DNA of 64,000 bases from an uncultured Acidobacteriota bacterium. GTDB taxonomy: Bacteria; Acidobacteriota; Vicinamibacteria; Vicinamibacterales; CAVVIG01. The stretch covers positions 29,602-93,601 of the forward strand of contig CADEDC010000012.1 in NCBI GenBank assembly GCA_902825985.1, written 5' to 3'. Below, one piece after another: positions 5,615 through 36,218 of the stretch. The notes under the pieces were generated by a model. It was not told the DNA's origin. It saw only the letters and a program-made list of their open reading frames with translations, and did not search any database. The translations under genes and the position numbers were made by a program. Within the stretch, counting starts at the first letter, position 1. Each line of letters starts with the position of its first letter.

Positions 5615-8596
5615 GTGAAACATACGTACCGGGCGTCGCTCTGTCTCATCTCGGTCGCACTCATCTGTCTCTCGGTCGTGCCCTCGCGGGCCACCGATCT
5701 GCGCAGCGTGCTGACCGGCTACACAGTGACGTCCTGGAGCCAGAAGGACGGACTGCCGGCCGGCATCGTCTACGCGCTCGCACAGGACAACGAAGGCTAC
5801 ATCTGGGTCGCGACCGACGACGGGCCGTACCGTTTCGACGGAGTCCGGTTCAGTTCGTGGGAGCAGCTCAGCGATCAAGCGCTGCCATCCAAGCTCGTCC
5901 GCACGCTCCGGGTCGACAATGACGGAGCGCTGTGGGTGGGTTTCGCCGGCAAGGGTGGCGTCAGCCGGCTGCGTGACGGTCGAGCCGAGAACTTCGGTCA
6001 GGCACAGGGGTTGCCGAACTCGCCGGTCTCCACGCTGGTGGTGGATGCGCACGGCCTGTTGTGGGCCGGCACCGGCGTCGGCCTCTTCTTCTACCGCGAC
6101 GGCCGCTGGCAGAAGTACCCGTCCGACCGCGGCCTGCCGGACGAGTCGGTGTTCACCGCCACGTTTCTCGATCAGCGCAACCAGATGTACGTGGGGAACG
6201 CCGTCGGCTTCTACCGCTACCGCGAGGTGGACCAGCGCTTCGAGCGGGTCGAGACGACCACCGACATCGCGCGGGCCATCTCCGAAGATCCGCTCGGCAA
6301 CCTTCTCGTCACCGACGAGGTCGCCGGCTTCCGGCGCGTCGGTTCGCGCCAGCCGCCAATCGATCAGACCGAGCGCGGGCGCGGCCGACAGCTGCTGCGC
6401 GACCGGCGTGGCAACCTGTGGGTCGGCACCTCGGGTCAGGGACTCTGGCGCGTCCGCTTCGACGAGCAGGGGCGCATCCAGCTCACTGAACGGGCGACCG
6501 CCCTCACCGGCCTGCTCGCCGACGGTGTCTTCGCCCTGCTCGAGGATCGCGAAGGCAACATCTGGTCGGGCACGATTGAAGGCCTGAACCGGCTGACGCC
6601 ACACAAAGTGGCGCAGGTCACCGAGATTGGCCTGGTGGCCGGCGTCGAGTCGAGTGCCGATGGCTCGATCTGGGTCGGGACCGTCGACGAACTGCTGCGC
6701 TTCGGAAGTTCCTCGCTGCGGCGGGCCGACGAACGCGTCTCGATGAACGGCTCTCGGCTGCGCGCCCTCCACATCGACGCGCACGGCACCACGTGGGTGG
6801 CGACGACGCAGGGCTTGTCGCGGCTCGTGAAAGGGCAGCTCGTGCCGGTGAGCGTCACGACGGCCGACGAGATGCCCAGGCAGATCGATACCATCACGTC
6901 CGACGGGAACGGCGGCGTCTGGCTGTTCGACACGGCGCGCGGGCTGGTGCAGTACGCCGGCGGTCGCTTCAGCAACGTTGCGCTGCCGGTGTCGTTCGCG
7001 AAGACCCGGGTGTCGGCCACCTACACCGACAGCGGCGGGCGGGCGTGGTTCGCCTTCTCGGATGGCCAGGTGGCGTGGAGCGACGGCGAAGGGGTCCGCA
7101 TGCTCGGGCCGGCAGACGGCGTCGATGGCGGCGTCTACCAGGCGATCTACGAGGACTCGCTGCACCAGATCTGGCTCGGCGGTACGGCCGGACTCACCCG
7201 CTTTGCCGACGGTAAGTTCGTCACCATCCGCCAGGGCAACGGCTTCCCGGTCAACAACCTCACCGCCATCGTCGAGGACGGTGCCGACTACCTGTGGATG
7301 GGATCGGGCGTCGGCATCCTCCAGATCCGTCGCGACGAGTGCGACCGCGCCGCCGCCGACCCGTCGTATCAGGTGCACTACCGGCTCTACGATCGCGCCG
7401 ACGGACTCGCCGGGTTGCCGTTCGTCTACAGCACGAACCGGCGCGCCATCCGCGCCCGGGACGGTGGACTCTGGTTCGTCACGGCGCGCGGCCTGACGGT
7501 CATCGACCCGGACGATCTGCGGCCCGGCGACGACGCCTTGCCGGTCCGCATCGAAGGGATCATGGCGGACGGTGTCCGCCTGCGTCCCGAACAGGGCCTC
7601 CGGCTGCCGGCGCGCACGTCACGCGTCGAGATCGAATTCACGGCGCTCAACATGACGTCGCCGCTCAAGCAGCAGTTCCGCTACCGGCTCGAAGGGTTCG
7701 ATGCGGACTGGATCGACGCGGGCACGCGGCGCCAGGCGTTCTACACGAACCTGCCGCCGCGCCAGTTCCGCTTCCGGGTCATGAGCACGAGCGTCGCCGG
7801 CTCGTGGACCGACGACGGTGACGCGTGGGATTTCGGCATCGAACCGATGTTCTATCAGACGCGCTGGTTCATGATCCTGTCGGTCGGCTTCGTGGTGGCC
7901 GGCGTCGGCGGGGCGTGGCGTCTGCACGTCGGACAGGTACGGCGACAGTTCGCCCTGCTGCTCGGCGAGCGGGCGCGCCTGAGCCGCGAAATCCACGACA
8001 CGCTGCTGCAAAGCCTGGTCGGCATCGCACTGCAGTTCGACGCCATGGCCAACGACCCCGAGGCGACGTCCGACGCGCAGAAGGATCGCTTCGTGCGCAT
8101 GCGCAAGCAGGTCGAGGAGTACATCCGCGAAGCCCGCCAGTCGATCTGGGATCTGCGATCGCCCAAGCTCAAGGTACAGGACCTGGTCACCGCACTGCGT
8201 GAGGCGGGCGAACGGGCGACCACCCCGGCCGCGATTGCGTTCAATCTGACGGTGAACGGCACGCCGCGACGGCTGCCGGCCAAGACCGAAGAGCAGGTAC
8301 TGCGCATCGGGCAGGAGGCCGTGGTGAATGCAGTCCGCCACTCGCGGGCCAGCCTCGTGTCGGTGGAACTCGATTTCGACAGTACGCGGCTGGTCCTGCG
8401 CGTCCATGACGATGGACAGGGCTTCGAGCCGTCACGGGTGTCGTCCAGCAATGGCGGCGGCCACTACGGATTGACGAGCATGCGCGAGCGCGCCGAACAG
8501 ACAGGCGGCAGCCTGCGGGTCGACAGCGCGCCCGGACGCGGGACACACATCGAAGCCACGGTGCCGACCGCACCGGCCGGCGGCAAGGGCGTATGA
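5615..8596 (+). CDS. sensor histidine kinase with periplasmic two-component-regulator beta-propeller and Y_Y_Y-like region (HisKA_3 type)
   Basis: 993 aa. The first ~700 aa repeat GLP....V.....D..G..W.GT propeller units. A TM helix FMILSVGFVVAGVGGAW follows. The H-box is LSREIHDTLLQSL, and the HATPase boxes are EAVVNAVRHS, DDGQGF and GHYGLTSMRERA. Confidence 0.9.
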   Translation: MKHTYRASLCLISVALICLSVVPSRATDLRSVLTGYTVTSWSQKDGLPAGIVYALAQDNEGYIWVATDDGPYRFDGVRFSSWEQLSDQALPSKLVRTLRVDNDGALWVGFAGKGGVSRLRDGRAENFGQAQGLPNSPVSTLVVDAHGLLWAGTGVGLFFYRDGRWQKYPSDRGLPDESVFTATFLDQRNQMYVGNAVGFYRYREVDQRFERVETTTDIARAISEDPLGNLLVTDEVAGFRRVGSRQPPIDQTERGRGRQLLRDRRGNLWVGTSGQGLWRVRFDEQGRIQLTERATALTGLLADGVFALLEDREGNIWSGTIEGLNRLTPHKVAQVTEIGLVAGVESSADGSIWVGTVDELLRFGSSSLRRADERVSMNGSRLRALHIDAHGTTWVATTQGLSRLVKGQLVPVSVTTADEMPRQIDTITSDGNGGVWLFDTARGLVQYAGGRFSNVALPVSFAKTRVSATYTDSGGRAWFAFSDGQVAWSDGEGVRMLGPADGVDGGVYQAIYEDSLHQIWLGGTAGLTRFADGKFVTIRQGNGFPVNNLTAIVEDGADYLWMGSGVGILQIRRDECDRAAADPSYQVHYRLYDRADGLAGLPFVYSTNRRAIRARDGGLWFVTARGLTVIDPDDLRPGDDALPVRIEGIMADGVRLRPEQGLRLPARTSRVEIEFTALNMTSPLKQQFRYRLEGFDADWIDAGTRRQAFYTNLPPRQFRFRVMSTSVAGSWTDDGDAWDFGIEPMFYQTRWFMILSVGFVVAGVGGAWRLHVGQVRRQFALLLGERARLSREIHDTLLQSLVGIALQFDAMANDPEATSDAQKDRFVRMRKQVEEYIREARQSIWDLRSPKLKVQDLVTALREAGERATTPAAIAFNLTVNGTPRRLPAKTEEQVLRIGQEAVVNAVRHSRASLVSVELDFDSTRLVLRVHDDGQGFEPSRVSSSNGGGHYGLTSMRERAEQTGGSLRVDSAPGRGTHIEATVPTAPAGGKGV

Positions 8597-22717: not shown

Positions 22718-22760
22718 GCCGTACGGACGAGCAAAGCCGGTGCCGAGGTAGGATCACGCC

Positions 22761-23286: not shown

Positions 23287-24804
23287 CTAGCCGAGCTTCT
23301 TCAGCCGGAGCACGCTGTGCTCCACGTCGATTCCAACCCGATACTTGCTCAGGAACCGGTGGCCGACGATGCCGCCGAGCTCGAAGCCGAGCAGCGCACT
23401 CGGGGCGTTCAAGTTGAGCACGACGACCGGGAAGTTGTCGTAGCGGATCTCCTTGAACGCCAGGTTGACGCCCGGCATCAGGAACGCGTCCCGATCCCAA
23501 CCCGACGACCCGAACACCTTCAAGGCAATCTTCCGGCCGGTCTCCGGCCGGGCCAGCGCGGTGGCGGTCGCGGTCGAGATGGAAATGACCTCGCCGCCCG
23601 TGTCGACGACGAAGTTGGCCGTGTGCTTCCCGTCCACCATCCCGCGGACTGTCGCAAGACGATGCATGCGCATGGATAGTTCGAAGTCAGATTCTTCCGG
23701 CTCGAGGTGCTTGCCGAACACGATCTTCTTCGTCCGGTAGTCGATGATCATCGAGAACCCGAGGGCGAGCGGCGACAGGCTCTCGGCCTCCTTGACCGGC
23801 AGATCGCGCATCGGCGGATCCTTGATCAAGGCTGGGATGTTGCGCAGCTTGAGGGTGCCAATCTCGAGCGAATCGATACGCGCCAGCTGCAGGCCGCGCA
23901 GACCGGCGTTGCCGACGCCGGCGCTGAGCGTGTACGTCACCGGCGCGATGCCGAGACGTTGCGCCGTGCCACGCGACACGATGGTGCTCTCGGCGCCGGT
24001 GTCGACGACGAAGTCCTGGAACGAGCCTTCGTTCACCTTGGCCCGGACCACGATCTTGTCGTTCCTGAGGCGGAAATCAATCGTGTAGATCTGGTCGGCC
24101 GCGCCCGGATCCATCTCGAACGGCACGCGCTGCCCGAACGACTTCAGGAACTTGATTTCGGCCCGCGACCAGTCGGCTTTCTCGCTGCGGTCCTTGTTCG
24201 GCAGCAGGTTGACATAGTTCGTGTAGGAGGCCGCCGCCTCTTCATAGCGCCGCATCCGCTCGAAGACGGAACCGAGGGTGTGATGCATCTCGAGGTCGCG
24301 TGGCGCATGGCGGAGCGCCGCCTCGGCCATCGTCAGCGCCTCATCGAGTTTGGTGCGCGCGGCGAGCGCCCGCGCCATGCCGTGGAGGCCACGGGCCAGC
24401 TCAGGCGCCTTCGCCAGCGCGTCCCGGTACCGGCCCTCCGCCTCCTCGAACAGCCCGGACGCCCACAAAGCATCCGCATACGTGGCCAGTACCGACGGAT
24501 CCTCGGGCGACTCTTCGAGCAGGGTCGCCGCTTCGATACGGGCGACCGGGAAATCCGCGATGCGCAGCGCCGACTGGATGACACCGGACCGAGCCGCCCG
24601 GATGTTGACCGGGCCGGCCGACTTCAGCGCCTTCCGGTAGGCGTCCAGCGAATCGGCAAACCGCCCCTCGCGGAAGAACTCGTGGCCGAGCTGCAGCTGG
24701 ACCTCGCCCGACTGGGATTGCGAGATGACGTCACCGCCGTAGATGGCCACCGACGCGCCGACCACCATCACCGACATGGCGAACGAGAGAACGCCCCTGC
24801 GCAT
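23287..24804 (-). CDS. secreted TPR-repeat protein with two retropepsin-like aspartyl-protease domains
   Basis: Signal peptide, N-terminal TPR repeats, then two D-T-G blocks: FVVDTGAESTIVS and FVVDTGGEVISIS. Confidence 0.8.
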   Translation of the reverse strand: MRRGVLSFAMSVMVVGASVAIYGGDVISQSQSGEVQLQLGHEFFREGRFADSLDAYRKALKSAGPVNIRAARSGVIQSALRIADFPVARIEAATLLEESPEDPSVLATYADALWASGLFEEAEGRYRDALAKAPELARGLHGMARALAARTKLDEALTMAEAALRHAPRDLEMHHTLGSVFERMRRYEEAAASYTNYVNLLPNKDRSEKADWSRAEIKFLKSFGQRVPFEMDPGAADQIYTIDFRLRNDKIVVRAKVNEGSFQDFVVDTGAESTIVSRGTAQRLGIAPVTYTLSAGVGNAGLRGLQLARIDSLEIGTLKLRNIPALIKDPPMRDLPVKEAESLSPLALGFSMIIDYRTKKIVFGKHLEPEESDFELSMRMHRLATVRGMVDGKHTANFVVDTGGEVISISTATATALARPETGRKIALKVFGSSGWDRDAFLMPGVNLAFKEIRYDNFPVVVLNLNAPSALLGFELGGIVGHRFLSKYRVGIDVEHSVLRLKKLG

Positions 24805-24937
24805 GCACCCTCCGGATCAGGCGATATCGACGAACGTCCGACCCATACAAGATCCGGGCCGGCGAATGGCGGTGCGGAAACGATAGCGTACGGGCCGCCG
24901 GTTTCGAAACCCGAAAACCGCGACCGACCGGCGAAAG

Positions 24938-25408
24938 TCAGCGCGTGTACAGCTCGATGGGGACGCCGTCGTACATCTCGTCGACCCGCAGGATCTGCGC
25001 CTCCCGGCTGTACGTCCCGAGTTCGTAGTCCTCACTCATGATCAACGCCTTTATCGGCCTGGTGGGACAGACCTCCGCACACAATCCGCAGAAACTGCAG
25101 CGCGACAGGTTGAAATCGAAGTAATCGAGCACCTTGATCTTCTGCCCGGGCTCGCGATGGCCGCCGAGCGCGATCAGGTCGTCGGGGCAGACCTTGGCAC
25201 ACTGGTCGCAGACGATGCAGGTTTGCGCACCGGTGGCCGGCTCGGTCTGCAGCCGCAGCACGCCGCGAAATCTCGGAGCGGTCGGCCGCCGTTCGGCCGG
25301 ATACTGGAAGGTGAAGGCCGCCTGCGGGGTGTACTTGAGTGTCAGGAACATCCCCTTCCACAGATCGGCGAGCAGGACGGTCTTGATCAGGCGGACGAGG
25401 GTGCGCAT
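24938..25408 (-). CDS. nuoI: NADH-quinone oxidoreductase subunit I-like 2x[4Fe-4S] protein
   Basis: The internal ATG at 25408 gives MRTLVRLIKTVLLADLWKGMFLTLKYT..., a typical NuoI N-terminus. There are two CxxCxxCxxxCP motifs, CIVCDQCAKVCP and CSFCGLCAEVCP. The longer track ORF would overlap nuoB. Confidence 0.85.
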   Translation of the reverse strand: MRTLVRLIKTVLLADLWKGMFLTLKYTPQAAFTFQYPAERRPTAPRFRGVLRLQTEPATGAQTCIVCDQCAKVCPDDLIALGGHREPGQKIKVLDYFDFNLSRCSFCGLCAEVCPTRPIKALIMSEDYELGTYSREAQILRVDEMYDGVPIELYTR

Positions 25409-25409
25409 G

Positions 25410-25967
25410 TCAGACGTCCAGGTCTCCGGCACGGCCGGACGACGCCAGCAGAACCGGTTCGGTCTCGCCGAGCCGGATGACACGCTCGCGGCGCAGCACC
25501 GTCCCTTCCTTCCGGATCTTGTCCTGCAGACGCAGCAACCCGTACAGGAGTGCCTCCGGCCGCGGCGGGCAGCCGGAGACATAGACGTCCACCGGCACGA
25601 CCTTGTCGACGCCCTGCAGCACGCTGTAGGTGGGAAACGGACCGCCAGCGTTCGAGCAGCTGCCCATGGAGATCACCCACTTCGGTTCGGGCATCTGGTC
25701 GTAGAGGCGGCGCAGCACCGGCGCCATCTTCTTCGTGACGGTGCCGGCGACGATCATCAAATCGGACTGTCGGGGCGACGCCCGGAACACCTCGGCGCCG
25801 AACCGGGCGATGTCGTAGCGCGCGGCGGAGGCGGCCATCATCTCGATCGCGCAGCACGCCAGACCGAACCCCATCGGCCAGATGGAATTCGAGCGTGCCC
25901 AGTTCAGTACGCCATCCACGGTCGTCGTGATGATGTTGTCGTCGAACTGATGATCGATCAATCCCAT
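25410..25967 (-). CDS. nuoB: NADH-quinone oxidoreductase subunit B-like protein (cluster N2 ligands present)
   Basis: [30 protein letters not shown] and [15 protein letters not shown] are the canonical NuoB cysteine motifs. The stop is 1 nt before the nuoI start. Confidence 0.9.
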
Positions 25968-26027
25968 CGCCGCCCCATGACGCGCGCTCCGGCCCGCCGG
26001 TGCGCGCGGCTTTCCCGTGCTCGGAGG

Positions 26028-26288
26028 TTATTCGTCGAAATAGCTGCGGTTCTTGTCGATGAACGCACTCCACTTGTGCGGGGTCTCGTCGAGCGCGAAG
26101 ATGGCCGCCACCGGACAGGCCGGCACGCACGCGCCGCAGTCGATGCACTCGTCGGGATGGATGTAGAGCATGTCCACGGTGGCGAACGCCGGTTCGTCCT
26201 TGCGCGGGTGGATGCAGTCCACCGGACAGACATCGACACAGGCCGCGTCTTTGATATCGATGCAGGGTTCGCAGATGATGAACGCCAT
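26028..26288 (-). CDS. small bacterial-type ferredoxin (FdxA-like, two Fe-S cluster motifs)
   Basis: 86 aa: MAFIICEPCIDIKDAACVDVCPVDCIHP...CIDCGACVPACPVAAI. Confidence 0.9.
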   Translation of the reverse strand: MAFIICEPCIDIKDAACVDVCPVDCIHPRKDEPAFATVDMLYIHPDECIDCGACVPACPVAAIFALDETPHKWSAFIDKNRSYFDE

Positions 26289-26323
26289 GACCGCAAGGAA
26301 CCGTGAAGTTGTGAACTAAGTGT

Positions 26324-26855: not shown

Positions 26856-28109
26856 GTGGCCTGTCCTTCCCTGCGCACCATTCCGGCGCTGGCCATGCTG
26901 GTCGTCGGCCTCGGCCTCCGTCCGGCCGGGGCCCAGATGCTCCGGTCCGAACCGCTGGTGTTCGGCGACGGCCGCGCCACGCTCGCCGGCGACGTGTCGT
27001 GGAGCTTCTCCTGTTCGCACGCGCCGTCGATCGATGGCTGCGGCGAGGACCTCGGCTATTTCAACTACGGCAACTACGAGACGCCGCTGCTGCGCAATTT
27101 CCGCGTCAACGTCTCGGCGTCGGTCAAGGCGGCGCGTCGGATCTCGTTCCTGACGGAGGTCCGGTCGGACAACCTGCGGCGCCCGGAACCCTATGCGCTG
27201 TACGTGCGGGTCCGGCCGTGGCTGAACCGGCAGTTCGACCTGCAAGCTGGACGCATACCGCCGACGTTCGGGGCGTTCTCGCGCCGACCCTATCCGACGG
27301 ACAACCTGCTCATCGGCATGCCGCTCGCCTATCAATACTTGACGTCGTTGCGGCCCGACGCGCTGCCGGCCACGGCCGACGAACTGATTCGCATGCGCGG
27401 CCGCGGCTGGCTTTCCACCTACACGGTCGGCAGCCAGACGCCGCGGGCGGGCGTGCCGCTGCTGAACGGCCTGTCCTGGGATGCCGGCATCCAGGCCCAT
27501 GCCGCCACCGACTGGCTCGACGCCGCGGTCTCGGTCACCAACGGGACGCTGTCCCACCCGGTGATCCGCGAGGACAACGCCGGCAAGCAGATCTCGGGAC
27601 GCGTCGGCATCACGCCGGTGACCGGACTCATCGCGGGCGCGTCGGCGGCCCGCGGGCCGTTCGCCGCCCGGACCGCGACGCTCGGCGCCGGGCTGCCGTC
27701 CGACGACCGCTCGGTCACGCAGACGGCTTGGGGCGTCGACATCGAGTATTCGCACGGATACTACCTGCTGCGCGCCGAGACGATCGTCAGTGCCTGGCAT
27801 CTGCCAACCCTCGGGACTCCGGCCATCAGCGGACCGCTGCGGGCCGTGGCGGCGACGCTGGAAGGACGCTACAAACTGCGTCCCGGGCTGTACGCCGCCG
27901 CCCGTGTCGATCGCCTGGCGTTCAACGAGGTGATCGGCTCGTCCGGCTCGGAGACGTGGGAGGCGCCGGTCACGCGGGTCGAAGCCGGCGTCGGCTACCT
28001 GCTGCAACGCAATTTGCTGCTCAAGCTCGTCTATCAGCACAACGACCGTGATGGCGGCCGGGTGCCGGTGGTCCAGATCGGCGCCGGTCAGCTCGTGTAT
28101 TGGTTTTGA
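26856..28109 (+). CDS. outer-membrane beta-barrel (porin-like) protein of unknown function
   Basis: Signal peptide ...LGLRPAGAQ, alternating amphipathic strands, and a C-terminal beta-signal ending QIGAGQLVYWF. Confidence 0.65.
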   Translation: MACPSLRTIPALAMLVVGLGLRPAGAQMLRSEPLVFGDGRATLAGDVSWSFSCSHAPSIDGCGEDLGYFNYGNYETPLLRNFRVNVSASVKAARRISFLTEVRSDNLRRPEPYALYVRVRPWLNRQFDLQAGRIPPTFGAFSRRPYPTDNLLIGMPLAYQYLTSLRPDALPATADELIRMRGRGWLSTYTVGSQTPRAGVPLLNGLSWDAGIQAHAATDWLDAAVSVTNGTLSHPVIREDNAGKQISGRVGITPVTGLIAGASAARGPFAARTATLGAGLPSDDRSVTQTAWGVDIEYSHGYYLLRAETIVSAWHLPTLGTPAISGPLRAVAATLEGRYKLRPGLYAAARVDRLAFNEVIGSSGSETWEAPVTRVEAGVGYLLQRNLLLKLVYQHNDRDGGRVPVVQIGAGQLVYWF

Positions 28110-28110
28110 T

Positions 28111-28809
28111 ATGCAGCCCGGCCCCCGCGCCCTCATCCTGCTGGCCGTCGGCGGCCTCACCATCCTCACCGGACCGATGCACCTCCCCGGCACGGTCGCG
28201 CGCGCCGTCGCCGCCGCACCCGGCATCATTCGCGGGCGCGTCGAGATCGGCAGACCGGTCACGACCGGCGAACGCCGGCCGGGGGTCGCCCAGCTCGGCG
28301 CCCCGCCCGAGCGCAACCGTCCGGATCCGAGACAGGCGGTCGTCTACCTGCAGGCGGCGCCGCGCGGCGCCTTCGAGCAGACCGATGCCGGCCGCGCGGT
28401 GATGGATCAGCGGAACGAAACCTTCGTCCCGCACGTCCTCGCCATCACCACCGGGACGACCGTCGACTTCCCGAACAGCGATCGCACGTATCACAACGTG
28501 TTCTCGCTGTCGAAAGCGTCGAAGTTCGACCTCGGACGGTACGCGGTGGGCCGCTCGAAGTCGGTCCGCTTCGACCGACCCGGCATCGTCCGCGTATTCT
28601 GCGACATCCACTCGCACATGAACGCGTTCATCCTGGTCTTCAGTCATCGCTACTTCGCGATGACCGATGCCGAGGGGCGCTACCGCATCGACAACGTGCC
28701 GCCGGGGACGTACCAGGTGGTCGCCTGGAACGAAGGCAAGACGTCGGAGCCGAAGGCGGTCGCGGTTCCCGACGGTGGCCCGGCCGAACTCGACTTCTTC
28801 CTGCGATGA
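28111..28809 (+). CDS. periplasmic type-1 (blue) copper cupredoxin domain fused to a carboxypeptidase-regulatory-like (Ig-like) domain
   Basis: ATG at 28111, 1 nt after the upstream stop. YHNVFSL plus FCDIHSHMNAF supplies a plastocyanin-like set of His, Cys, His and Met ligands. The C-terminal GRYRIDNVPPGTYQVVAW is CarboxypepD_reg-like. Confidence 0.7.
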   Translation: MQPGPRALILLAVGGLTILTGPMHLPGTVARAVAAAPGIIRGRVEIGRPVTTGERRPGVAQLGAPPERNRPDPRQAVVYLQAAPRGAFEQTDAGRAVMDQRNETFVPHVLAITTGTTVDFPNSDRTYHNVFSLSKASKFDLGRYAVGRSKSVRFDRPGIVRVFCDIHSHMNAFILVFSHRYFAMTDAEGRYRIDNVPPGTYQVVAWNEGKTSEPKAVAVPDGGPAELDFFLR

Positions 28810-30602
28810 GCCTGCTGCGTTCGCTGCAGAGCCGCATGTTCCTGGCGTCGGCCCTGCTGACCGTCGTCTCGATCGGCGTCGCGATCTATCTGGTGGGGGT
28901 GCGGGTGAACCGCGAGGTCGAAGACGCCCTGCAGCGTGACATCGTCGCCACCGGCGCCCTGGTCGATCAGCTGCGGACGACGCGCGCCGAGACGTTCGCG
29001 ATGATGGCGCGACTGGTCGGCGACGCGCCGAAGCTGAAGGCGGCAGTCGATACCAACGATCCGCCGACCGTGCAGGACGTCGCCGGCGACTACCGGGAAC
29101 AGCTGCGGGCGCACCGGCTGATCATCACCAATCGCAGCGGCCAGGTCCTTGCCCACGTCGGCGGCGCCGCCGACGAGACGCGGCGGCTGGCCGCCAGCCC
29201 GGCCACCGCCATCGCCCTCGGCGGCCGTGACGGCTTTGCGATCGTGCCGGTCGACGACGGTCTGCTGCAACTGTTCACGGTGCCGATCGCGCTCGGCGTC
29301 GAACGCCCCGACGTGCTCGGCAGCCTGATCGTCGGGTTCCTGCTGGACGACACGCTGGCGGCCGAGCTGAAATCACTGACCGGAAGCGATCTCGCCTTCG
29401 GCCTCGACGGCCGGATTCTCGCGTCGACCCTGCCCGCCGATCATCTCGAGCGGGTCGGGAGCCTGCTCACCGCCGTGCGGCCGCAGAACGTGACGCTCGG
29501 CGGCGAAGAGTTCGTTGCGCTGGCACGGCCGCTGGCGCCGGGCACCGGTGGCTCGTCCGCGTCCGCCGCCGCCGTGATCCTGCGCTCCCGCACCGACCAG
29601 GTGCGGTTCCTCAACGAAATCAACTCGGAGCTGGCGGTCACCGCGGTACTCGGCGTCCTGCTCGCCACGCTCCTGAGCTTCGGCGTGGCCCGCACCATCA
29701 CACGGCCGCTCGCCGCCATCACCAGGGTGATGAAGGACGTGGCGACCACCGGCGACCTGACGCGGAAGATCACGTCGGGCAGCGCGCGCCGCTGGCACGA
29801 CGAGGACGCCCAGATTCTGGCGTCGACGTTCAACACGCTGACCGAGTCGATCGTCCGCTTCCAGCGCGAGGGCGCCCAGAAGGAGCGGCTGTCGTCGCTC
29901 GGCCGGCTCTCCACGGTCATCGCCCACGAAGTCCGCAATCCGCTGATGATCATCAAGGCGGCGTTGCGGCCGTTGCGCCTGCCGGCGCCCGATCCCGAGG
30001 CGCTCCGGGAGGCGGTCACCGACATCGAACACGAAGTCGCGCGCCTGAACCGGGTGGTCAACGAGGTCCTGGACTTTGCCCGGCCGATCCGCTTCGAGCT
30101 GGGGCCCACCGCCGTCAACGACCTGTGCCGGGAATCCGCCAGCGCCGCGCAGGCGGCCCCCGGGGTGCCGGTTCGTCTCGAGCTGGCGTCCGACGTGCCG
30201 GTGATCCGATCCGACACCGAACGGCTGCGCCAGGCGCTGGTCAACCTGATCGTCAATGCACGGCAGGCGGTGGACGTCCACACCGCGCCGGCGCGCGTCG
30301 CACCTGGCGGGGTGGCGGCGCTGTCCGGTCCGGAGGCGTGCGTCACCGTGTCGACCCGCACCGAGCCGGATGCGGTCACCATTATCATCGCCGACCCGGG
30401 ACGGGGGATCGATCCGGCCGACCTGCCGAGGATCTTCGATCCCTACTTCACGACCAAGCGCGGCGGCACAGGTCTTGGATTGCCGATTGCCAGGAACGTC
30501 GTGGAGGGGCTCGGCGGCACGCTGACCGTCCTGAGCACGGTCGGCCGCGGAACGGAAATCCGCATCGACCTCCCGCGAACATCCGGCGACAGCTCCGTGT
30601 GA
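28806..30602 (+). CDS. membrane sensor histidine kinase (periplasmic sensor domain, HAMP, HisKA, HATPase_c)
   Basis: Two TM segments flank a ~250-aa sensor domain. The H-box is LSTVIAHEVRNPLMII. The N, G1 and G2 boxes are LVNLIVNARQA, DPGRGI and GGTGLGLPIARN. It overlaps the upstream gene by 4 nt. Confidence 0.9.
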   Translation: MSLLRSLQSRMFLASALLTVVSIGVAIYLVGVRVNREVEDALQRDIVATGALVDQLRTTRAETFAMMARLVGDAPKLKAAVDTNDPPTVQDVAGDYREQLRAHRLIITNRSGQVLAHVGGAADETRRLAASPATAIALGGRDGFAIVPVDDGLLQLFTVPIALGVERPDVLGSLIVGFLLDDTLAAELKSLTGSDLAFGLDGRILASTLPADHLERVGSLLTAVRPQNVTLGGEEFVALARPLAPGTGGSSASAAAVILRSRTDQVRFLNEINSELAVTAVLGVLLATLLSFGVARTITRPLAAITRVMKDVATTGDLTRKITSGSARRWHDEDAQILASTFNTLTESIVRFQREGAQKERLSSLGRLSTVIAHEVRNPLMIIKAALRPLRLPAPDPEALREAVTDIEHEVARLNRVVNEVLDFARPIRFELGPTAVNDLCRESASAAQAAPGVPVRLELASDVPVIRSDTERLRQALVNLIVNARQAVDVHTAPARVAPGGVAALSGPEACVTVSTRTEPDAVTIIIADPGRGIDPADLPRIFDPYFTTKRGGTGLGLPIARNVVEGLGGTLTVLSTVGRGTEIRIDLPRTSGDSSV

Positions 30603-30605
30603 CCC

Positions 30606-31973
<1,368 letters not shown>

Positions 31974-31989
31974 CGCCTGCGTCGGGAGC

Positions 31990-32038
31990 CGCCTTGCGCC
32001 GGCCGGCGTGTTCTTACGCCTTGCGAAAGCGCCTTACG
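31990..32038 (+). promoter_or_regulatory. three direct repeats CGCCTT(G/A)CG, candidate enhancer (UAS) sites
   Basis: CGCCTTGCG at 31990-31998 and 32017-32025, and CGCCTTACG at 32030-32038. They lie 75-120 bp upstream of the sigma-54 promoter. Confidence 0.3.
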
Positions 32039-32111
32039 ACGCGCGAAACATCCGGCCCGGGCCGGCGTCCGCGATCGCCGCGGAAACCGACGGATTTCAC
32101 CACCACGACCA

Positions 32112-32126
32112 TGGCACCGCGCTTGC
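32112..32126 (+). promoter_or_regulatory. sigma-54 (-24/-12) promoter
   Basis: TGGCAC-cgcgc-TTGC is an exact match to the consensus TGGCAC-N5-TTGC. It lies 40 nt upstream of the ATG at 32167 (GGAGG at 32159-32163) and directly downstream of a sigma-54 activator gene. Confidence 0.7.
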
Positions 32127-32166
32127 GCCCTGCTGACGGAAACTGGTTGGACCCATCCGGAGGCAC

Positions 32167-32622
32167 ATGCGTCACTACATCCGTATCTTCGCCATCGTTG
32201 TGTTCGCGGCCGGCGCGGCCGCCTGCGATGAAGATCTGTCCTCGATCACCGGGCCGACGCCCAACCTGGAACCGACGTTCTCGAGCATCCAGGCGAACAT
32301 CTTCGAAGTCTCGGACTCGGCGGGCCGCGTGGCCTGCATCAATTGCCACACGAACGTCGGCCGGACGCCGGCCGCCAATCTGAACCTCCTGCACGACTTC
32401 GCCTACGACCAGTTGGTGAACCGCGCCAGCAGCCAGCGTCAAGGCTGGTCCATCGTCTCGCCGGGAAACCCGAACGCCAGCTATCTGGTCGAGAAGCTGG
32501 TGGCGACGCCGAGCGCGCCGATCGTCGGACTTCGGATGCCTCGCAACATCCCTCCCTTCCTGACCGACGGTCAGATTCTCGTCATCAAGCGCTGGATTGA
32601 GAACGGCGCCGAGCGGAACTAG
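32167..32622 (+). CDS. monoheme c-type cytochrome lipoprotein
   Basis: The lipoprotein signal is MRHYIRIFAIVVFAAGAAAC. There is a single CxxCH heme-binding motif, in IFEVSDSAGRVACINCHTN. Confidence 0.7.
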   Translation: MRHYIRIFAIVVFAAGAAACDEDLSSITGPTPNLEPTFSSIQANIFEVSDSAGRVACINCHTNVGRTPAANLNLLHDFAYDQLVNRASSQRQGWSIVSPGNPNASYLVEKLVATPSAPIVGLRMPRNIPPFLTDGQILVIKRWIENGAERN

Positions 32623-32680
32623 CAGACGCGTCCGCAGCGCCACTTTTCAGTCATCGGGACTTCTCAATCAAGGAGCTATC

Positions 32681-33487
32681 GTGAATCGTTCATGGTTTCG
32701 ACTCGCCGCGGCGCTGGCCCTCACGGTCGCGTTCGCACCCTCGGCATTCGCGCAGGATGACGACGACGCCTCGCTCAAGCTCGCGGAGCCGGACTTCAAC
32801 CTCATGGCCCTGCCGACCGCGTTGCGGCTGCCGGCGCGCGGCAGCGCCTTCCGCGTCACCCACCGTTTCCTCCGCCCGCTGGCCGATGGCGATTTCGGCG
32901 ATCTCGCCGGCGACCTCTTCGGCCTCGACAACGGTGCCCAGATCGGCCTCGAGTACCGCGTCGGGCTGATGAAGAACACCCAGGTGGGGCTCCACCGGAC
33001 CAACGACAAGGACCTGATGCTGTTCACGCAGTACGGCCTGGTACGTCAGGGCCAATTGCCGGTGGACGTCTCGATCCTGGCGTCGATCGACGGCACCAAC
33101 AACTTCAAGGACAGCTACTCTCCGTCCCTCGGTGTCATCCTGTCGCGCACCGTTGGCGACGTCGCGGCGGTCTACGTCGAGCCGATGTGGGTGAACAACA
33201 CCAACATCCTGCCCAAGGACCTGACCGACGACAACGACACCATCATCGTCGGACTCGGCGCCCGCGTCCGGTTCCTGCCGACCGCATATCTCGCCCTCGA
33301 GTACGCGCCGCGTGTCGGCTATGCGCCGGGGGATGACCACATCAGCGTCGGCCTCGAGAAGCGGGTCGGCGGCCACAGCTTCCAGTTGAACTTCTCGAAC
33401 TCGTACGGGACGACCCGCCGACAGCTGGCCCTCGGCGGCAGTGAGTCCTGGTATCTCGGCTTCCAGATCGCGCGCAAGTTCTTCTGA
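32681..33487 (+). CDS. outer-membrane beta-barrel protein of unknown function
   Basis: The GTG at 32681 is preceded by AAGGAG (32670-32675). Signal peptide VNRSWFRLAAALALTVAFAPSAFAQ. Alternating strands end in FQIARKFF. Confidence 0.7.
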   Translation: MNRSWFRLAAALALTVAFAPSAFAQDDDDASLKLAEPDFNLMALPTALRLPARGSAFRVTHRFLRPLADGDFGDLAGDLFGLDNGAQIGLEYRVGLMKNTQVGLHRTNDKDLMLFTQYGLVRQGQLPVDVSILASIDGTNNFKDSYSPSLGVILSRTVGDVAAVYVEPMWVNNTNILPKDLTDDNDTIIVGLGARVRFLPTAYLALEYAPRVGYAPGDDHISVGLEKRVGGHSFQLNFSNSYGTTRRQLALGGSESWYLGFQIARKFF

Positions 33488-33630
33488 GCTCACCCCAGGC
33501 CACCCATGGCCGTCCGGGCACCTGTCGATGCTCCGCAGGTGTCCGGATCTCTTTCCTCCTCCCAGGGCCGCGACGACCTCGGCCTCGCATCCACCGCCCA
33601 CCTGTCGTAAGCTGTGAGCGGCGTGCCGGC

Positions 33631-34038
33631 ATGGCTGACAGCGAGGAGGTTCGCGTGACGATTCTGCCCATCACCGGGTTGGTCCTGGCAGGCCTCGTCA
33701 CGGCGGCGTGCGGGACCTCCGAACCGGCACCATCCACCGGCGGCGGCAGCGATCCGGCTACGACGTTCACCATCACGGCGAGCGGCGTCAGCCCGCGCAC
33801 CATGACGGTGCCGCGCGGCACGCAGGTGACGTTCGTCAACAACGCCGGCCGCGCCCATGACATGTCGAGCGACCCGCATCCGACCCACGAGAACTGCCCC
33901 GAACTGAACAGTGTCGGCCTGCTCAGCGCCGGCCAGCGCCGTCAGAGCGCGAATCTGAACGCGGCTGGCCGCTGCGGATTCCACGACCACAACCAGCCCG
34001 GAAACGCCGCATTGCAGGGCACGATCACCATCCAGTAG
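33631..34038 (+). CDS. cupredoxin-like lipoprotein
   Basis: The lipobox is LVTAAC. The block PRTMTVPRGTQVTFVNNAGRAHDM...GRCGFHDHNQPGNAALQGTITIQ has a cupredoxin-like strand pattern with a C-x2-H motif. The start codon is uncertain. Confidence 0.6.
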   Translation: MADSEEVRVTILPITGLVLAGLVTAACGTSEPAPSTGGGSDPATTFTITASGVSPRTMTVPRGTQVTFVNNAGRAHDMSSDPHPTHENCPELNSVGLLSAGQRRQSANLNAAGRCGFHDHNQPGNAALQGTITIQ

Positions 34039-34242
34039 GCCGCTTGACGAGGACGGCACAGATGCTGTCCATGGGCCGCCGGCCGTCACGCTGGCAGGCC
34101 CGGCCGGCCCGGACGCGCCCGGGCGGGTCCGGCGTCGATTCCCGATGAACGCACCGAACGTGCGGCATATTGTCGCAGCGCCGGCGCGGCCGGGCCATCC
34201 CTGCGCGCGCCGACCGATCGGCGTCGTACACTGTCGACGACG

Positions 34243-35625
34243 ATGGAGACGGGCGTGACCAGCACCGCACAGGGCTCACCGGGTTCGCCGGATTCACCGG
34301 GTTCACAGGGCTTACAGGGGGCCGGCGCCGCGATCCGGCCCTGGTATCTGGCCGCGACGTCGCTCGGCACGCTGACCTGGCTGGTGCGGCTGCGCTGGAC
34401 GTCGGTCGCGCTGCACGTCGCCGTCCTCGCCTTCAGCGCCGCCTTCAGCCACGTCGATTTCCCGCTCCGCCGCCTGGCCTGGTTCGTCGCTGCCGCCGCC
34501 CTCGTCAACGCGCTGCGGGCCCGCTGGCTCGACGCGACCGGCACGACGCCACGCACCTTCGACGGCCTCGGTCTCGTCATCGACGCGATGCTGCTGACCG
34601 GACTGCTCGAGCTCACCGGCGGACCGTTCAATCCGTTCGGTGTCATCTTCATCGTCCAGATCGCACTGGCCGTGGTGACGCTCGGCCGCCTGCCGGCGGT
34701 CGGGCAGTCGCTCCTCGCGCTGGTCTGCATCGGCCTGCTCGTCTACTGGCACACGACGGAGACGGATCCCGAGCACCACCGTCTGAACGACTTCCCCACC
34801 CACCTGTTCACCATGTGGGTGGCGGCCGCCGTGATCGTCGAGCTGGTCGCCTATTTCGTCCTGCAGGCGTCGAACGCCTTGTCGCGTCGCGAGCAGGAGC
34901 TCGACGCCATGCGGCGGCAGGCCGCCCGCACCGAACGGCTGATCGCGATGACGACGCTGGCAGCGGGAGCCGCCCACGAACTGTCGACGCCGCTCGCCAC
35001 GATCGCGCTGGCCTCGCGTGAGCTCGAACACACCGCGGCGCGCGGCTCGACGCCAGGCCTCGTCGATGATGCCCGCCTCATTCGTGCGGAGGTCGACCGC
35101 TGTCGTGCCATCCTCGACCAGATGAGTGGACGGGCGGGGGGGGTCGCGACCGACAATCCGGACGAGGTGACGATTGCCGCGGTCATCGACGACGTGCGGG
35201 CGCGGCTGACGGTCGAACAACGGGAGCGGCTGCTGGTGCGCATCGACCCGTCCGTCGGTCCCCTGCGTCTCCCCCGCACAGGTTTCGGCCAGGCCCTCGT
35301 GTCGCTGATCACGAACGCCTTCGATGCCACCGCCGAGCAGCGACCCGCGAGCGATGCGCCGGTCCGCCTCGAGGCCAGGCAGCTCGGCACGCGCCTGCAG
35401 GTGTACGTGCGCGACTCCGGTACCGGCATGGCGCCGCACCTGCTCGAACGCGTCGGCGAGCCATTCTTCACGACGAAGGAGGCCGGACGGGGACTCGGAC
35501 TGGGCGTCTTCCTCGCCCGCATCTTTGCCGAGCGTGCCGGCGGATCGCTGTCGCTCGACGCCGACCAGGGGACGACCGTCACCCTCGATCTGCCGGTGCG
35601 GATGGAGACCGGGGGGGCGCGATGA
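34243..35625 (+). CDS. regB: RegB/PrrB/ActS-type redox-sensing membrane histidine kinase
   Basis: There are six predicted TM helices. One carries the RegB quinone-site heptapeptide GGxxNPF (GGPFNPF). The H-box is AAHELSTPLATI. A Cys follows in EVDRCRAILDQM, at the redox-box position. The HATPase boxes are DSGTGM and GRGLGLGVF. Confidence 0.8.
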   Translation: METGVTSTAQGSPGSPDSPGSQGLQGAGAAIRPWYLAATSLGTLTWLVRLRWTSVALHVAVLAFSAAFSHVDFPLRRLAWFVAAAALVNALRARWLDATGTTPRTFDGLGLVIDAMLLTGLLELTGGPFNPFGVIFIVQIALAVVTLGRLPAVGQSLLALVCIGLLVYWHTTETDPEHHRLNDFPTHLFTMWVAAAVIVELVAYFVLQASNALSRREQELDAMRRQAARTERLIAMTTLAAGAAHELSTPLATIALASRELEHTAARGSTPGLVDDARLIRAEVDRCRAILDQMSGRAGGVATDNPDEVTIAAVIDDVRARLTVEQRERLLVRIDPSVGPLRLPRTGFGQALVSLITNAFDATAEQRPASDAPVRLEARQLGTRLQVYVRDSGTGMAPHLLERVGEPFFTTKEAGRGLGLGVFLARIFAERAGGSLSLDADQGTTVTLDLPVRMETGGAR

Positions 35626-36218
35626 CGCCGCCCGGCAGGTCATCGACCGGCACCGCTGGTCCGGTGTCGGCCAGGGACGCCCGCAGCATCCTCATCGTCG
35701 ATGACGACGAGCGCTTCCGGACGCGGCTCGTCCGCGCCTTCGCCGAGCGCGGCCTCGACGCCACTGGCGCCGGCGACTACGACGAGGCGCTCGCGGCGGC
35801 CCGGAGCGACAGCCCGGAACTGGCCGTGGTCGACCTGCGGCTGCCCGGCCGTACCGGCCTCGAGATCGTTCGCGACCTCAAGGCGCTGGACCCGACGACC
35901 TACGTCGTCGTGCTCACCGGATACGGCAGCATCGCCACCGCCGTACAGAGCGTCAAGTTCGGCGCGACCTCCTATCTCACGAAACCGGTCGACGCCGATC
36001 AGATTCTGGCGGCCTTCGACGCGCCGCCCGGCGCCGCCTTCGACGCCGCGACACCGGCACCGCCGCCGCAGCGCCTGGCGCGCGTGGAATGGGAGCACAT
36101 CCAACGCGTGATGGCCGACTGCGACGGCAACGTCTCGCAGGCGGCCCGGCTGCTTGGCATCCACCGCCGCTCGCTGCAACGCAAGCTCGCCAAGTACCCG
36201 GTGCCCGAAAACGGCTGA
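35622..36218 (+). CDS. regA: RegA/PrrA/ActR-type response regulator
   Basis: A REC domain (ILIVDDDERF, LAVVDLRLPG, TKP) plus a short Fis-type HTH (NVSQAARLLGIHRRSLQRKLAKYP). It overlaps the kinase gene by 4 nt. Confidence 0.85.
   Translation: MTPPGRSSTGTAGPVSARDARSILIVDDDERFRTRLVRAFAERGLDATGAGDYDEALAAARSDSPELAVVDLRLPGRTGLEIVRDLKALDPTTYVVVLTGYGSIATAVQSVKFGATSYLTKPVDADQILAAFDAPPGAAFDAATPAPPPQRLARVEWEHIQRVMADCDGNVSQAARLLGIHRRSLQRKLAKYPVPENG

Follow-up and report, generated by a model that had tools for sequence, protein, structure and literature searches.

A predicted sigma-54 operon for a monohaem cytochrome lipoprotein and an outer-membrane beta-barrel in uncultured Vicinamibacterales

The two-component systems ZraSR, AtoSC and NtrBC each combine a histidine kinase with a response regulator built of a REC domain, an AAA+ domain with the GAFTGA motif and a Fis-type helix-turn-helix (HTH), and act on a neighbouring target operon (zraP, atoDAEB and glnA, respectively) with a GG-N10-GC promoter. 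Their enhancers are tandem inverted repeats that lie on one face of the helix at a distance of about 100 bp upstream, and tandem dyad sites so placed are the standard layout of activators of the NtrC family. The same arrangement was found in a 64,000-nucleotide stretch of contig CADEDC010000012.1 (hereafter the window; G+C content 69%), from an uncultured Acidobacteriota bacterium of the order Vicinamibacterales. In the window, the genes for a sensor kinase and an NtrC-type regulator are followed by a predicted sigma-54 promoter and by two genes, one for a monohaem c-type cytochrome lipoprotein and one for an outer-membrane beta-barrel of the family DUF5777. The locus differs from the three known systems in its sensor domain, which is another and unassigned one, and in its target, a cytochrome together with a barrel.

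With respect to the products, the systems for comparison are the porin-cytochrome conduits. Cyc2 is a fused cytochrome-porin iron oxidase with a 16-stranded barrel, carrying PxFAR[Q/K][T/Y] and PxL at 5 aa before and 4 aa after CxxCH, respectively, while in MtrAB, MtoAB, PioAB and the Pcc systems of Geobacter a cytochrome with 8-10 haems is threaded through a barrel of 20-26 strands (PMC8406198). The window pair resembles Cyc2 in combining one c-type haem of the CxxCH type with an outer-membrane beta-barrel, a minimal set in comparison with the decahaem conduits, and it shares with the Mtr, Mto, Pio and Pcc systems a periplasmic c-type cytochrome that is co-encoded with an outer-membrane barrel. 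It differs from Cyc2 in being two polypeptides, with a 58-nt gap between the genes, in having 12 strands instead of 16, and in its cytochrome, a PSCyt1-type lipoprotein domain of 130 aa rather than a short N-terminal plug; neither of the Cyc2 motifs is present in SDSAGRVA-CINCH-TNVGRTPAANL, the segment around its haem motif. From the multihaem conduits it differs in its single haem and in its 12 strands, which are too narrow for a cytochrome. An earlier note on this DNA, made from the letters alone, had called the pair reminiscent of porin-cytochrome conduits. This likeness is unproven; the pair fails the defining features of both Cyc2 and the Mtr and Pcc types.

Promoter, enhancer and regulator of the operon

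The exact sequence TGGCAC-N5-TTGC was detected only once in the window, both strands being scanned (0.13 occurrences expected by chance). It falls within the 193-nt gap 3' of the stop codon of the regulator gene (31971-31973), 40 nt upstream from the ATG of the cytochrome gene (32167), and transcription is predicted to start near 32138. The coordinates of this element and of the other features are listed in Table 1.

Conservation was followed in two sets of loci. A scan with one genome per species gave the cytochrome gene in 61 loci, or 62 when the window is counted, all of the 61 being in metagenome-assembled genomes (MAGs) of Acidobacteriota or Vicinamibacterales, three of them under titles that are evidently wrong. 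A second, independent set, of metagenome loci, was fetched via the barrel; the scan with the barrel profile returned close relatives only and no wider taxonomic range, whereas a tblastn search of plasmids did widen the range. An element was counted when at least 8 of the 10 consensus positions matched and both GG and GC were intact. By this measure NGGCAY-N5-TTGC lies ahead of the operon in 59 of the 62 Vicinamibacterales loci, at 38-67% protein identity, and is kept in 40 of 51 metagenome loci, the background rate in the same DNA being 0.0003 per nt (0.07 per 250 nt). Where the cytochrome gene comes first, the element is located 42-72 nt 5' of its ATG; where the operon has an extra first gene, it stands ahead of that gene, shifted 410-680 nt upstream with the 5' end of the operon. 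Loci with an unrelated gene upstream, or with one on the opposite strand, keep it as well. Positions that took no part in the selection fit the extended consensus as well, with C after GGCAY in 80% of the loci and T after TTGC in 66%. As judged by sequence comparison, the element at 32112-32126 is a conserved promoter and not a chance match, and the earlier prediction of a sigma-54 promoter directly 3' of the activator gene is upheld by position and conservation alike.

No sigma-70-like promoter was found by a scan of 31500-34500, which is weak evidence because acidobacterial sigma-70 promoters are poorly defined, and 31500-34200 gave no match to a riboswitch or other RNA in Rfam. In a MAFFT alignment of four loci, those without a regulator gene seemed to lack the -12 GC; the alignment was out of register, and a position-free scan finds GGGCAT-N5-TTGC there. 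The shorter GGCAC-N5-TTGC occurs also at 6001-6014 (+), inside the gene for a Reg_prop/Y_Y_Y histidine kinase (5615-8596) and probably by chance, and at 22731-22744 (-), where gene calls are ambiguous and a possible GTG start follows 14 nt on.

Anchoring the 59 loci on the -24 element revealed a palindrome, TTACG-N5-CGTAA, upstream of the promoter. With up to 2 mismatches it is found within 180 nt 5' of the promoter in 52 of the 59 loci (background, 0.00026 per nt or 0.05 per 180 nt), and in 31 loci it is paired, almost always with a spacing of 19 or 20 bp. The centres of the sites, measured from the -24 GG, cluster at -60/-80, -72/-92 and -82/-103, showing steps of about one helical turn (about 10.5 bp). 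In the window, the upstream activating sites (UAS) A and B are the only two places in 64 kb that match the palindrome with at most 1 mismatch; taken together they are also the best direct repeat between the regulator and cytochrome genes, spaced by 20 bp and phased on the helix with the -24 element. The conserved enhancer, according to this alignment of promoters, is a set of two tandem inverted repeats of TTACG-N5-CGTAA, a recognition sequence for which we know of no characterised regulator.

The earlier note had proposed as enhancer three direct repeats, CGCCTT(G/A)CG. The three copies stand where they were placed and are the only matches to CGCCTTRCG in the window, a number that is not unusual by itself (2.58 expected), yet all fall inside 49 nt. 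As an enhancer unit, the 9-mer was ruled out by its recurrence in just 1 of 58 other loci. The copy at 32017 falls mostly within the spacer of site A and the copy at 32030 covers the left half of site B, while the copy at 31990 is not conserved and lies at best inside a degenerate site at 31994-32008. This degenerate site was rejected as a third palindrome, with its 4 mismatches and with no third site seen in other loci.

Between the palindromes and the -24 element, a T-rich patch (GATTT, 30-26 nt 5' of the -24 GG, around 32083-32087 in the window) is moderately conserved, with T reaching 63% at its peak among the 59 promoters; a bending site of the IHF type is one possible reading, an UP-like element another. 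Six loci (L052, L054, L055, L059, L060 and L064) keep GGGCAY-N5-TTGC without the TTACG palindromes. These six share another upstream block, GAGTATAACTCGG ... TTTTTGGATCA ... TTGGATT, and this difference suggests that they are controlled by another enhancer-binding protein.

The kinase of 598 aa has well-scoring HisKA and HATPase_c domains, its matches to HAMP and sCache_3_2 in Pfam being weak. The regulator is the sole GAFTGA protein in the window, with the Pfam domains Response_reg (1.3e-24), Sigma54_activat (4.1e-74), AAA_lid_14 (8e-26) and HTH_8 (2.8e-9). The nearest NCBIfam models are AtoS/ZraS for the kinase and AtoC/ZraR for the regulator, all of them below cut-off; against the equivalog cut-offs the regulator scores 477 bits for AtoC (cut-off 714), 404 for ZraR (760) and 423 for NtrC (559). 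On these scores it is placed in the NtrC/ZraR/AtoC superfamily as an orthologue of no named system. Orthologous kinase and regulator genes are located directly 5' of the operon in at least 37 of the 62 loci (about 60%; regulator identity, 66-89%) and in 19 of the 29 metagenome loci that have enough flank. The suggestion that the operon is the output of the upstream sensory genes agrees with this proximity and with the phased upstream sites, with the reservation that the linkage is frequent rather than obligatory. Binding of this regulator to the palindromes would follow from the synteny.

The cytochrome gene stands directly 5' of the barrel gene in 59 of 60 metagenome barrel loci, 5 of the 6 exceptions flagged by script being merely overlapping gene ends, and the same adjacency holds in essentially all genome loci with enough contig. 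Co-occurrence of the two genes, which had been set as a check on the earlier proposal, was accordingly observed at nearly every barrel locus, and none of the refuting outcomes named in the earlier note was encountered. The gap between the two genes has a median of 24 nt (123 loci). Downstream of the barrel gene of the window, a strong stem-loop and a pyrimidine-rich tract follow, which may terminate or attenuate the bicistronic transcript; the structure was missed by a simple terminator scan because its U-tract is weak.

The cytochrome lipoprotein and the DUF5777 barrel

The cytochrome gene is preceded by a Shine-Dalgarno sequence, GGAGG, at 32159-32163. Its product starts with a signal peptide and the lipobox AAAC (MRHYIRIFAIVVFAAGAAA-C20), followed by Asp-Glu, so as to carry the signature of a predicted bacterial lipoprotein. 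There is a single haem motif, CINCH (C57-I-N-C60-H61), and Met124-Pro125 provides a putative distal ligand. The CxxCH motif is kept in all 127 loci compared (40-100% identity), with 30 different pairs of residues between the cysteines, and Met-Pro in 126 of the 127. The lipobox Cys is invariant, its context being lipobox-like in 97 of 103 loci, and the homologue alignment shows a proline-rich linker, GPTPNLEPTF, to be invariant also. Haem attachment and localisation are predicted. The earlier description of a 151-aa lipoprotein with an AAAC lipobox and one CINCH motif thus holds.

About 1,230 close homologues were found; those among the matches listed are about 150 aa long, and nearly all of them, where named, are called 'hypothetical protein'. 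An exhaustive phmmer search gave 2,542 relatives, many of them large proteins in which the domain is repeated 2-7 times in tandem. The distant ones score 33-138 bits for PSCyt1 (PF07635), and the motif layout agrees: the window protein shares with PSCyt1 proteins the CxxCH, the Met-Pro about 60 residues on and a C-terminal WIxxGA helix. Classical PSCyt1 proteins are large and multidomain (PSCyt1-PSCyt2-PSD1, or with Ig or CHRD domains), whereas the window protein is a stand-alone single-domain lipoprotein. A search by sequence matched no solved structure to the cytochrome, and the literature search brought up no PSCyt1 paper giving a function. Four distant relatives (P0315, P0319, P0331 and P0350) have C-x4-CH (CALSGCH or CAVSGCH), an unusual spacing for haem attachment, and long C-terminal extensions.

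For the barrel, the start at GTG 32681 is preceded by AAGGAG and is preferred by the homologue alignment over a longer open reading frame (ORF) that starts with TTG. The protein has a signal peptide ending AFA-Q, a C-terminal KFF and two invariant histidines, His61 and His232. Its score for PF19089 is 98.4 bits (threshold 23.1). The search gave 5,265 homologues, and 120 of 120 among the matches listed carry DUF5777 alone. The AlphaFold2 model has 12 strands, with a predicted local distance difference test score (pLDDT) of 77, so that the GTG-started beta-barrel ending KFF of the earlier note is recovered. Foldseek gave generic 12-stranded outer-membrane barrels only, first FapF at template modelling (TM) scores of 0.53-0.56 and then NanC, a KdgM-type porin, OMPLA, COG4313 and LpxR; VhGalP is also among the structural neighbours. 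No solved structure matched the barrel profile by sequence, and no mention of DUF5777 was found in the literature searched.

Strand periodicity indicates a lumen dense with invariant Arg, Glu, Gln and Asn, the charged ones being R58, R62, E91, R93, R195, R197, E207, R211, E226 and R228. Conservation is high for a porin, at about 70% mean column identity with 80 invariant columns. The motifs (S/T)HRF, containing His61-Arg62-Phe63, and GGHxFQ, containing Gly-Gly-His232, are invariant from Acidobacteriota to Bacteroidota. Both histidines fall on the hydrophobic face, of strands 1 and 11, according to strand periodicity, and could form a metal, haem or oligomer-interface site. Neither protein is an orphan, one being PSCyt1-like and the other a member of DUF5777, both of them catalogued families.

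Redox genes and other neighbours

In about one third of the loci (L018, L020, L023, L026, L031, L033, L037, L038, L042, L045, L048, L050-L055, L063 and L066), the operon begins with a gene for a stand-alone CuA-type cupredoxin, about 130 aa long. This protein carries the motif H...CSEYCGxGHxxM, with the full ligand set H...CxExCGxGHxxM, and matches Cupredoxin_1 at 6.7e-13; its best solved relative is the CuA domain of the Thermus ba3 oxidase (3e-13). Instead of it, L044 and L059 have a class-I cytochrome c gene in first place. The window operon is flanked on both sides by cupredoxin-like genes (28111-28809 and 33631-34038), and cupredoxins are encoded near Cyc2 of Acidithiobacillus as well, in the rus operon. 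The downstream one, for a cupredoxin-like lipoprotein, follows the barrel gene in about half of the genome loci and in 17 of 42 metagenome loci; its co-transcription with the barrel gene is uncertain.

Distant DUF5777 genes (25-29% identity) were found in Cytophagales by tblastn against plasmids and by look-ups of chromosomal homologues. The six loci so obtained include a YceI gene in all six cases, a Rieske gene in four, a PSCyt1-type cytochrome lipoprotein gene in three and an upstream gene for an extracytoplasmic function (ECF) sigma factor in three. They are like the window operon in the barrel family, in the PSCyt1-type lipoprotein partner and in a dedicated extracytoplasmic regulator, and differ in using an ECF sigma factor in place of a sigma-54 two-component system, and in having Rieske and YceI genes, which are absent from the window. 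In Bacteroidota, the Cytophagales cluster may correspond to the window operon. Sigma-54-dependent two-component systems and ECF sigma factors are both types of regulator that typically answer extracytoplasmic signals. It is this association, in two phyla, of the barrel with small exported redox proteins and with a regulator of the envelope-signal type that leads to the term 'envelope redox module'.

The gene order of the Cytophagales cluster is ECF sigma factor, a protein of about 420-500 aa, Rieske lipoprotein, DUF5777 and YceI, sometimes with a dihaem PSCyt1 lipoprotein. The protein of about 420-500 aa is annotated as an outer-membrane barrel in Emticicia only. One Runella cluster is flanked by the iron-transport genes FeoAB and VIT1.

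Upstream of the kinase gene in the window lie two further plus-strand genes. The first, for a putative outer-membrane barrel of 417 aa, matched no Pfam or NCBIfam family and precedes the kinase gene in most 'type A' loci, as seen by tblastn synteny; homology to the 417-aa barrel of Emticicia was looked for and none was found. The second, for an exported protein with cupredoxin and CarboxypepD_reg domains, is kept just 5' of the kinase gene. Its product has ligands like those of type-1 copper proteins (YHNVF...FCDIHSHM), and its start, ATG 28111, was chosen because the orthologue in L006 is shorter. These two genes (26856-28809) stand directly 5' of the kinase gene in most loci with a regulator and may be accessory sensing parts. 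The ORFs at 23707-25041 and 25134-26306 (+) were considered as part of an 'upstream sensory operon' and rejected: they match no families, and these plus-strand frames, 444 and 390 aa within 23707-26306, overlap real minus-strand genes and are therefore spurious. Such shadow ORFs are a common artefact at 69% G+C.

A second two-component system (34243-36218) is located between the cupredoxin lipoprotein gene and a DUF2911 gene. Its kinase has a PilS-like membrane domain and its regulator REC and Fis-type HTH domains without an AAA+ domain; the syntenic locus L006 does not have this system at that position. With regard to the sample, the MAG records L008, L012 and L041 are titled Bifidobacterium or Bifidobacteriaceae, while their DNA and synteny are typical of Vicinamibacterales; they are probably mislabelled or contaminated.

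Table 1. Positions of the predicted features in the window and of the Cytophagales clusters in their own records
Feature	Position	Strand	Basis
Sigma-54 (-24/-12) promoter, TGGCACCGCGCTTGC	32112..32126	+	exact 10/10 match to TGGCAC-N5-TTGC
UAS site A, TTACGCCTTGCGAAA	32014..32028	+	1 mismatch to TTACG-N5-CGTAA; centre 92 bp upstream of -24 GG
UAS site B, TTACGACGCGCGAAA	32034..32048	+	1 mismatch to TTACG-N5-CGTAA; centre 72 bp upstream of -24 GG
Repeat copy of the earlier note, CGCCTTGCG	31990..31998	+	
Repeat copy of the earlier note, CGCCTTGCG	from 32017	+	
Repeat copy of the earlier note, CGCCTTACG	from 32030	+	
Monohaem c-type cytochrome lipoprotein gene, 151 aa, PSCyt1-like	32167..32622	+	lipobox, CxxCH, Pfam, alignments
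Outer-membrane beta-barrel gene, DUF5777, 268 aa	32681..33487	+	Pfam PF19089 5e-28; AlphaFold2; alignments
Sensor histidine kinase gene, 598 aa (periplasmic sensor region, HAMP, HisKA, HATPase_c)	28806..30602	+	HisKA 2e-11, HATPase_c 8.8e-24
NtrC-family response regulator (bacterial enhancer-binding protein) gene (REC, AAA+ with GAFTGA, Fis-type HTH)	30606..31973	+	Pfam
Strong stem-loop, then pyrimidine-rich tract	33512..33548	+	-38.3 kcal/mol, z -2.75
Cupredoxin-like lipoprotein gene, 135 aa	33631..34038	+	weak Copper-bind, Cupredoxin_1 and plastocyanin matches
Putative outer-membrane beta-barrel gene, 417 aa, signal peptide, ends YWF	26856..28109	+	translation; tblastn synteny, 31-68% identity
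Exported cupredoxin + CarboxypepD_reg gene	28111..28809	+	CarboxypepD_reg 7.9e-10, weak Copper-bind; synteny, 41-79% identity
TPR/aspartyl protease gene	23287-24804	-	
4Fe-4S ferredoxin (Fer4) gene	24938-25582	-	
Oxidored_q6 protein gene	25410-25967	-	
Cytophagales cluster, L148	4323-6914		
Cytophagales cluster, L149	3599-5750		
Cytophagales cluster, L150	4192-5621		
Cytophagales cluster, L151	2370-6460		
Cytophagales cluster, L152	3835-7965		
Cytophagales cluster, L153	2584-6510		

Possible roles of the operon and their meaning

The comparative evidence supports the predicted promoter, enhancer and operon structure, the conservation of the haem motif and the predicted fold of the barrel, while we infer the partnership of cytochrome and barrel, whether physical or functional. 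Control of the bicistronic operon by sigma-54 and an enhancer-binding protein is, on this evidence, very probable. For the products, we propose tentatively, as a possibility, that the pair acts together as a redox module between periplasm and outer membrane. The two statements combined, namely a sigma-54 operon under a dedicated two-component system that encodes an inducible electron-transfer module of the envelope, make up a reading that we regard as fairly probable, a grade it owes to its mostly regulatory content.

In this combined reading, the membrane kinase (28806-30602) would sense a signal from the periplasm or the envelope and phosphorylate the NtrC-type regulator (30606-31973). The regulator would bind at 32014-32028 and 32034-32048, about 117 and 97 bp upstream of the predicted start, and open the closed complex of the sigma-54 holoenzyme at 32112-32126 in an ATP-driven reaction. 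From the transcript, a lipid-anchored, His/Met-ligated monohaem cytochrome of the PSCyt1 type and a 12-stranded DUF5777 barrel would be produced together, the gaps between their genes being short in all relatives; in many of these the operon also encodes a small electron carrier of the periplasm, which is a CuA-type cupredoxin in some and a class-I cytochrome c in others. The products would most likely make up an electron-transfer module that is inducible and belongs to the periplasm and outer membrane. The barrel would be its outer-membrane component, used by a small redox substrate as a channel or for docking, and the cytochrome would be the electron relay.

A bolder version, which we consider unlikely, is that PSCyt1 lipoprotein, DUF5777 barrel and a partner (cupredoxin, CuA, Rieske or class-I cytochrome c) represent an unrecognised minimal class of outer-membrane electron conduits, unrelated to Cyc2 and Mtr/Pcc. 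Such conduits would occur in soil Vicinamibacterales and in Cytophagales, be induced by dedicated envelope-signal regulators and exchange electrons with an extracellular or outer-membrane substrate, for instance Fe(II)/Fe(III), copper or redox-active organics, with H61 and H232 as a redox or metal site.

Several observations weigh against the combined reading. On the regulatory side, about 40% of the loci have unrelated upstream genes and no adjacent kinase or regulator, so that synteny is what pairs this regulator with the palindromes; most of these loci still keep the palindromes as well as the promoter, which means that the regulator can act from another place in the genome. No RpoN box was detected in the 64-kb window, and rpoN in this genome is assumed. 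On the side of the products, the window protein scores 14.9 bits for PSCyt1, below the threshold of 22 (E 0.04), and its AlphaFold2 model, with a pLDDT of 52, is of too low quality for a structure search. Under the Lol rule of E. coli, Asp at position +2 after the lipidated Cys leads to retention in the inner membrane. This Asp (D21-E22, 32224-32229 in the window) is nearly invariant in the homologues, and the cytochrome would therefore sit in the inner membrane, away from the barrel, if the rule holds in Acidobacteriota, which it may not. With 12 strands and a lumen lined by invariant Arg and Glu, the barrel would have no room for a cytochrome domain. Fusions of cytochrome and barrel are absent among the 150 representative cytochrome relatives and the 240 barrel homologues listed. 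The CuA first gene is not present at the window locus, and it is gene neighbourhood that points to a redox role. As to individual fusion candidates, the C-termini of P0315 and P0319 are not barrels, and P0287 looks like an assembly chimera.

The best-surviving alternative, though a somewhat unlikely one, takes the barrel as a substrate-specific pore, for example for Fe(II), Cu(I) or a small anion, with the cytochrome and the cupredoxins oxidising or reducing the solute in the periplasm; there would be no complex, and no electrons would pass through the barrel. It is favoured by the invariant charged residues of the lumen, by the solute channels among the structural neighbours (NanC/KdgM, VhGalP and COG4313), by the Asp at +2 with its suggestion of an inner-membrane anchor, and by metal transporters near some loci, ZIP beside L001 and FeoAB with VIT1 beside the Runella cluster. 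The near-obligate adjacency and tight spacing of the two genes are, however, what one would expect of partners more than of a generic porin; in conservation the barrel far exceeds a typical porin, and the conserved operon is without an inner-membrane transporter.

A role in defence of the envelope against oxidative damage would have electrons quench lipid radicals or oxidants in the outer membrane, in response to envelope or oxidative stress sensed by the two-component system. The model is BcnA, a YceI lipocalin, which works with LcoA, a cytochrome b561, in protecting the envelope against lipid peroxyl radicals (PMC9113575). The window pair would likewise be an envelope redox pair, and YceI is the constant neighbour of DUF5777 in Bacteroidota, adjoining it in 6 of 6 Cytophagales loci; the regulators in both phyla are of types that answer extracytoplasmic signals. 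The analogy is nevertheless two inferential steps long, leading to a distant homologue in another phylum and then to the neighbour of that homologue. Moreover, the window cytochrome is of c type and its partner an outer-membrane barrel, and the genes scanned at 23.7-39.4 kb include neither a YceI nor a cytochrome b561 gene, nor do the Vicinamibacterales operons. We hold this role to be decidedly unlikely.

That the CxxCH protein is no electron carrier at all is very unlikely. It would then be a haem or metal sensor or a chaperone feeding back on the kinase, or a metal-binding lipoprotein of the periplasm, the barrel having an unrelated, structural role; the low PSCyt1 score, the poor model and the lack of both a PSCyt1 function in the literature searched and a solved homologue would fit. 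On the other hand, CxxCH and the distal Met-Pro are kept almost without exception at the usual PSCyt1 position, the operon takes in classical carriers such as CuA cupredoxin and class-I cytochrome c, and relatives form tandem multi-haem arrays. Finally, a fortuitous -24/-12 match, with read-through from the regulator gene or an unrecognised promoter of sigma-70 or ECF type, is extremely unlikely, since the element recurs in nearly all loci whatever the upstream gene or its strand, moves with the 5' end of the operon and keeps its phased distance to the palindromes, even though an exact match turns up at least once in 13 of 100 shuffled versions of the window and the sigma-70 promoters of Acidobacteria are ill defined.

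The combined reading, of a sigma-54 operon for an envelope electron-transfer module, is thus preferred. The regulation follows the textbook scheme of the NtrC type, and what is uncharacterised is the cargo. Vicinamibacterales are among the commonest bacteria of soil, and their regulation and envelope biochemistry are almost unstudied. The locus offers a clean unit for testing, composed of a kinase, an enhancer-binding protein, a defined palindrome and a sigma-54 promoter, and the composite motif of palindromes and promoter can be used to map the regulon across the order. DUF5777 is very widespread: the window protein has more than 5,000 relatives and the Emticicia protein at least 8,000. The tie of this family to small periplasmic redox proteins in two phyla gives a first functional lead for it. 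If the pair is neither a conduit nor a redox device, the locus would be an ordinary inducible operon of the envelope; if it is an electron conduit or a metal-redox device, it would represent a new route in the redox cycling of iron, copper or organic compounds in soil.

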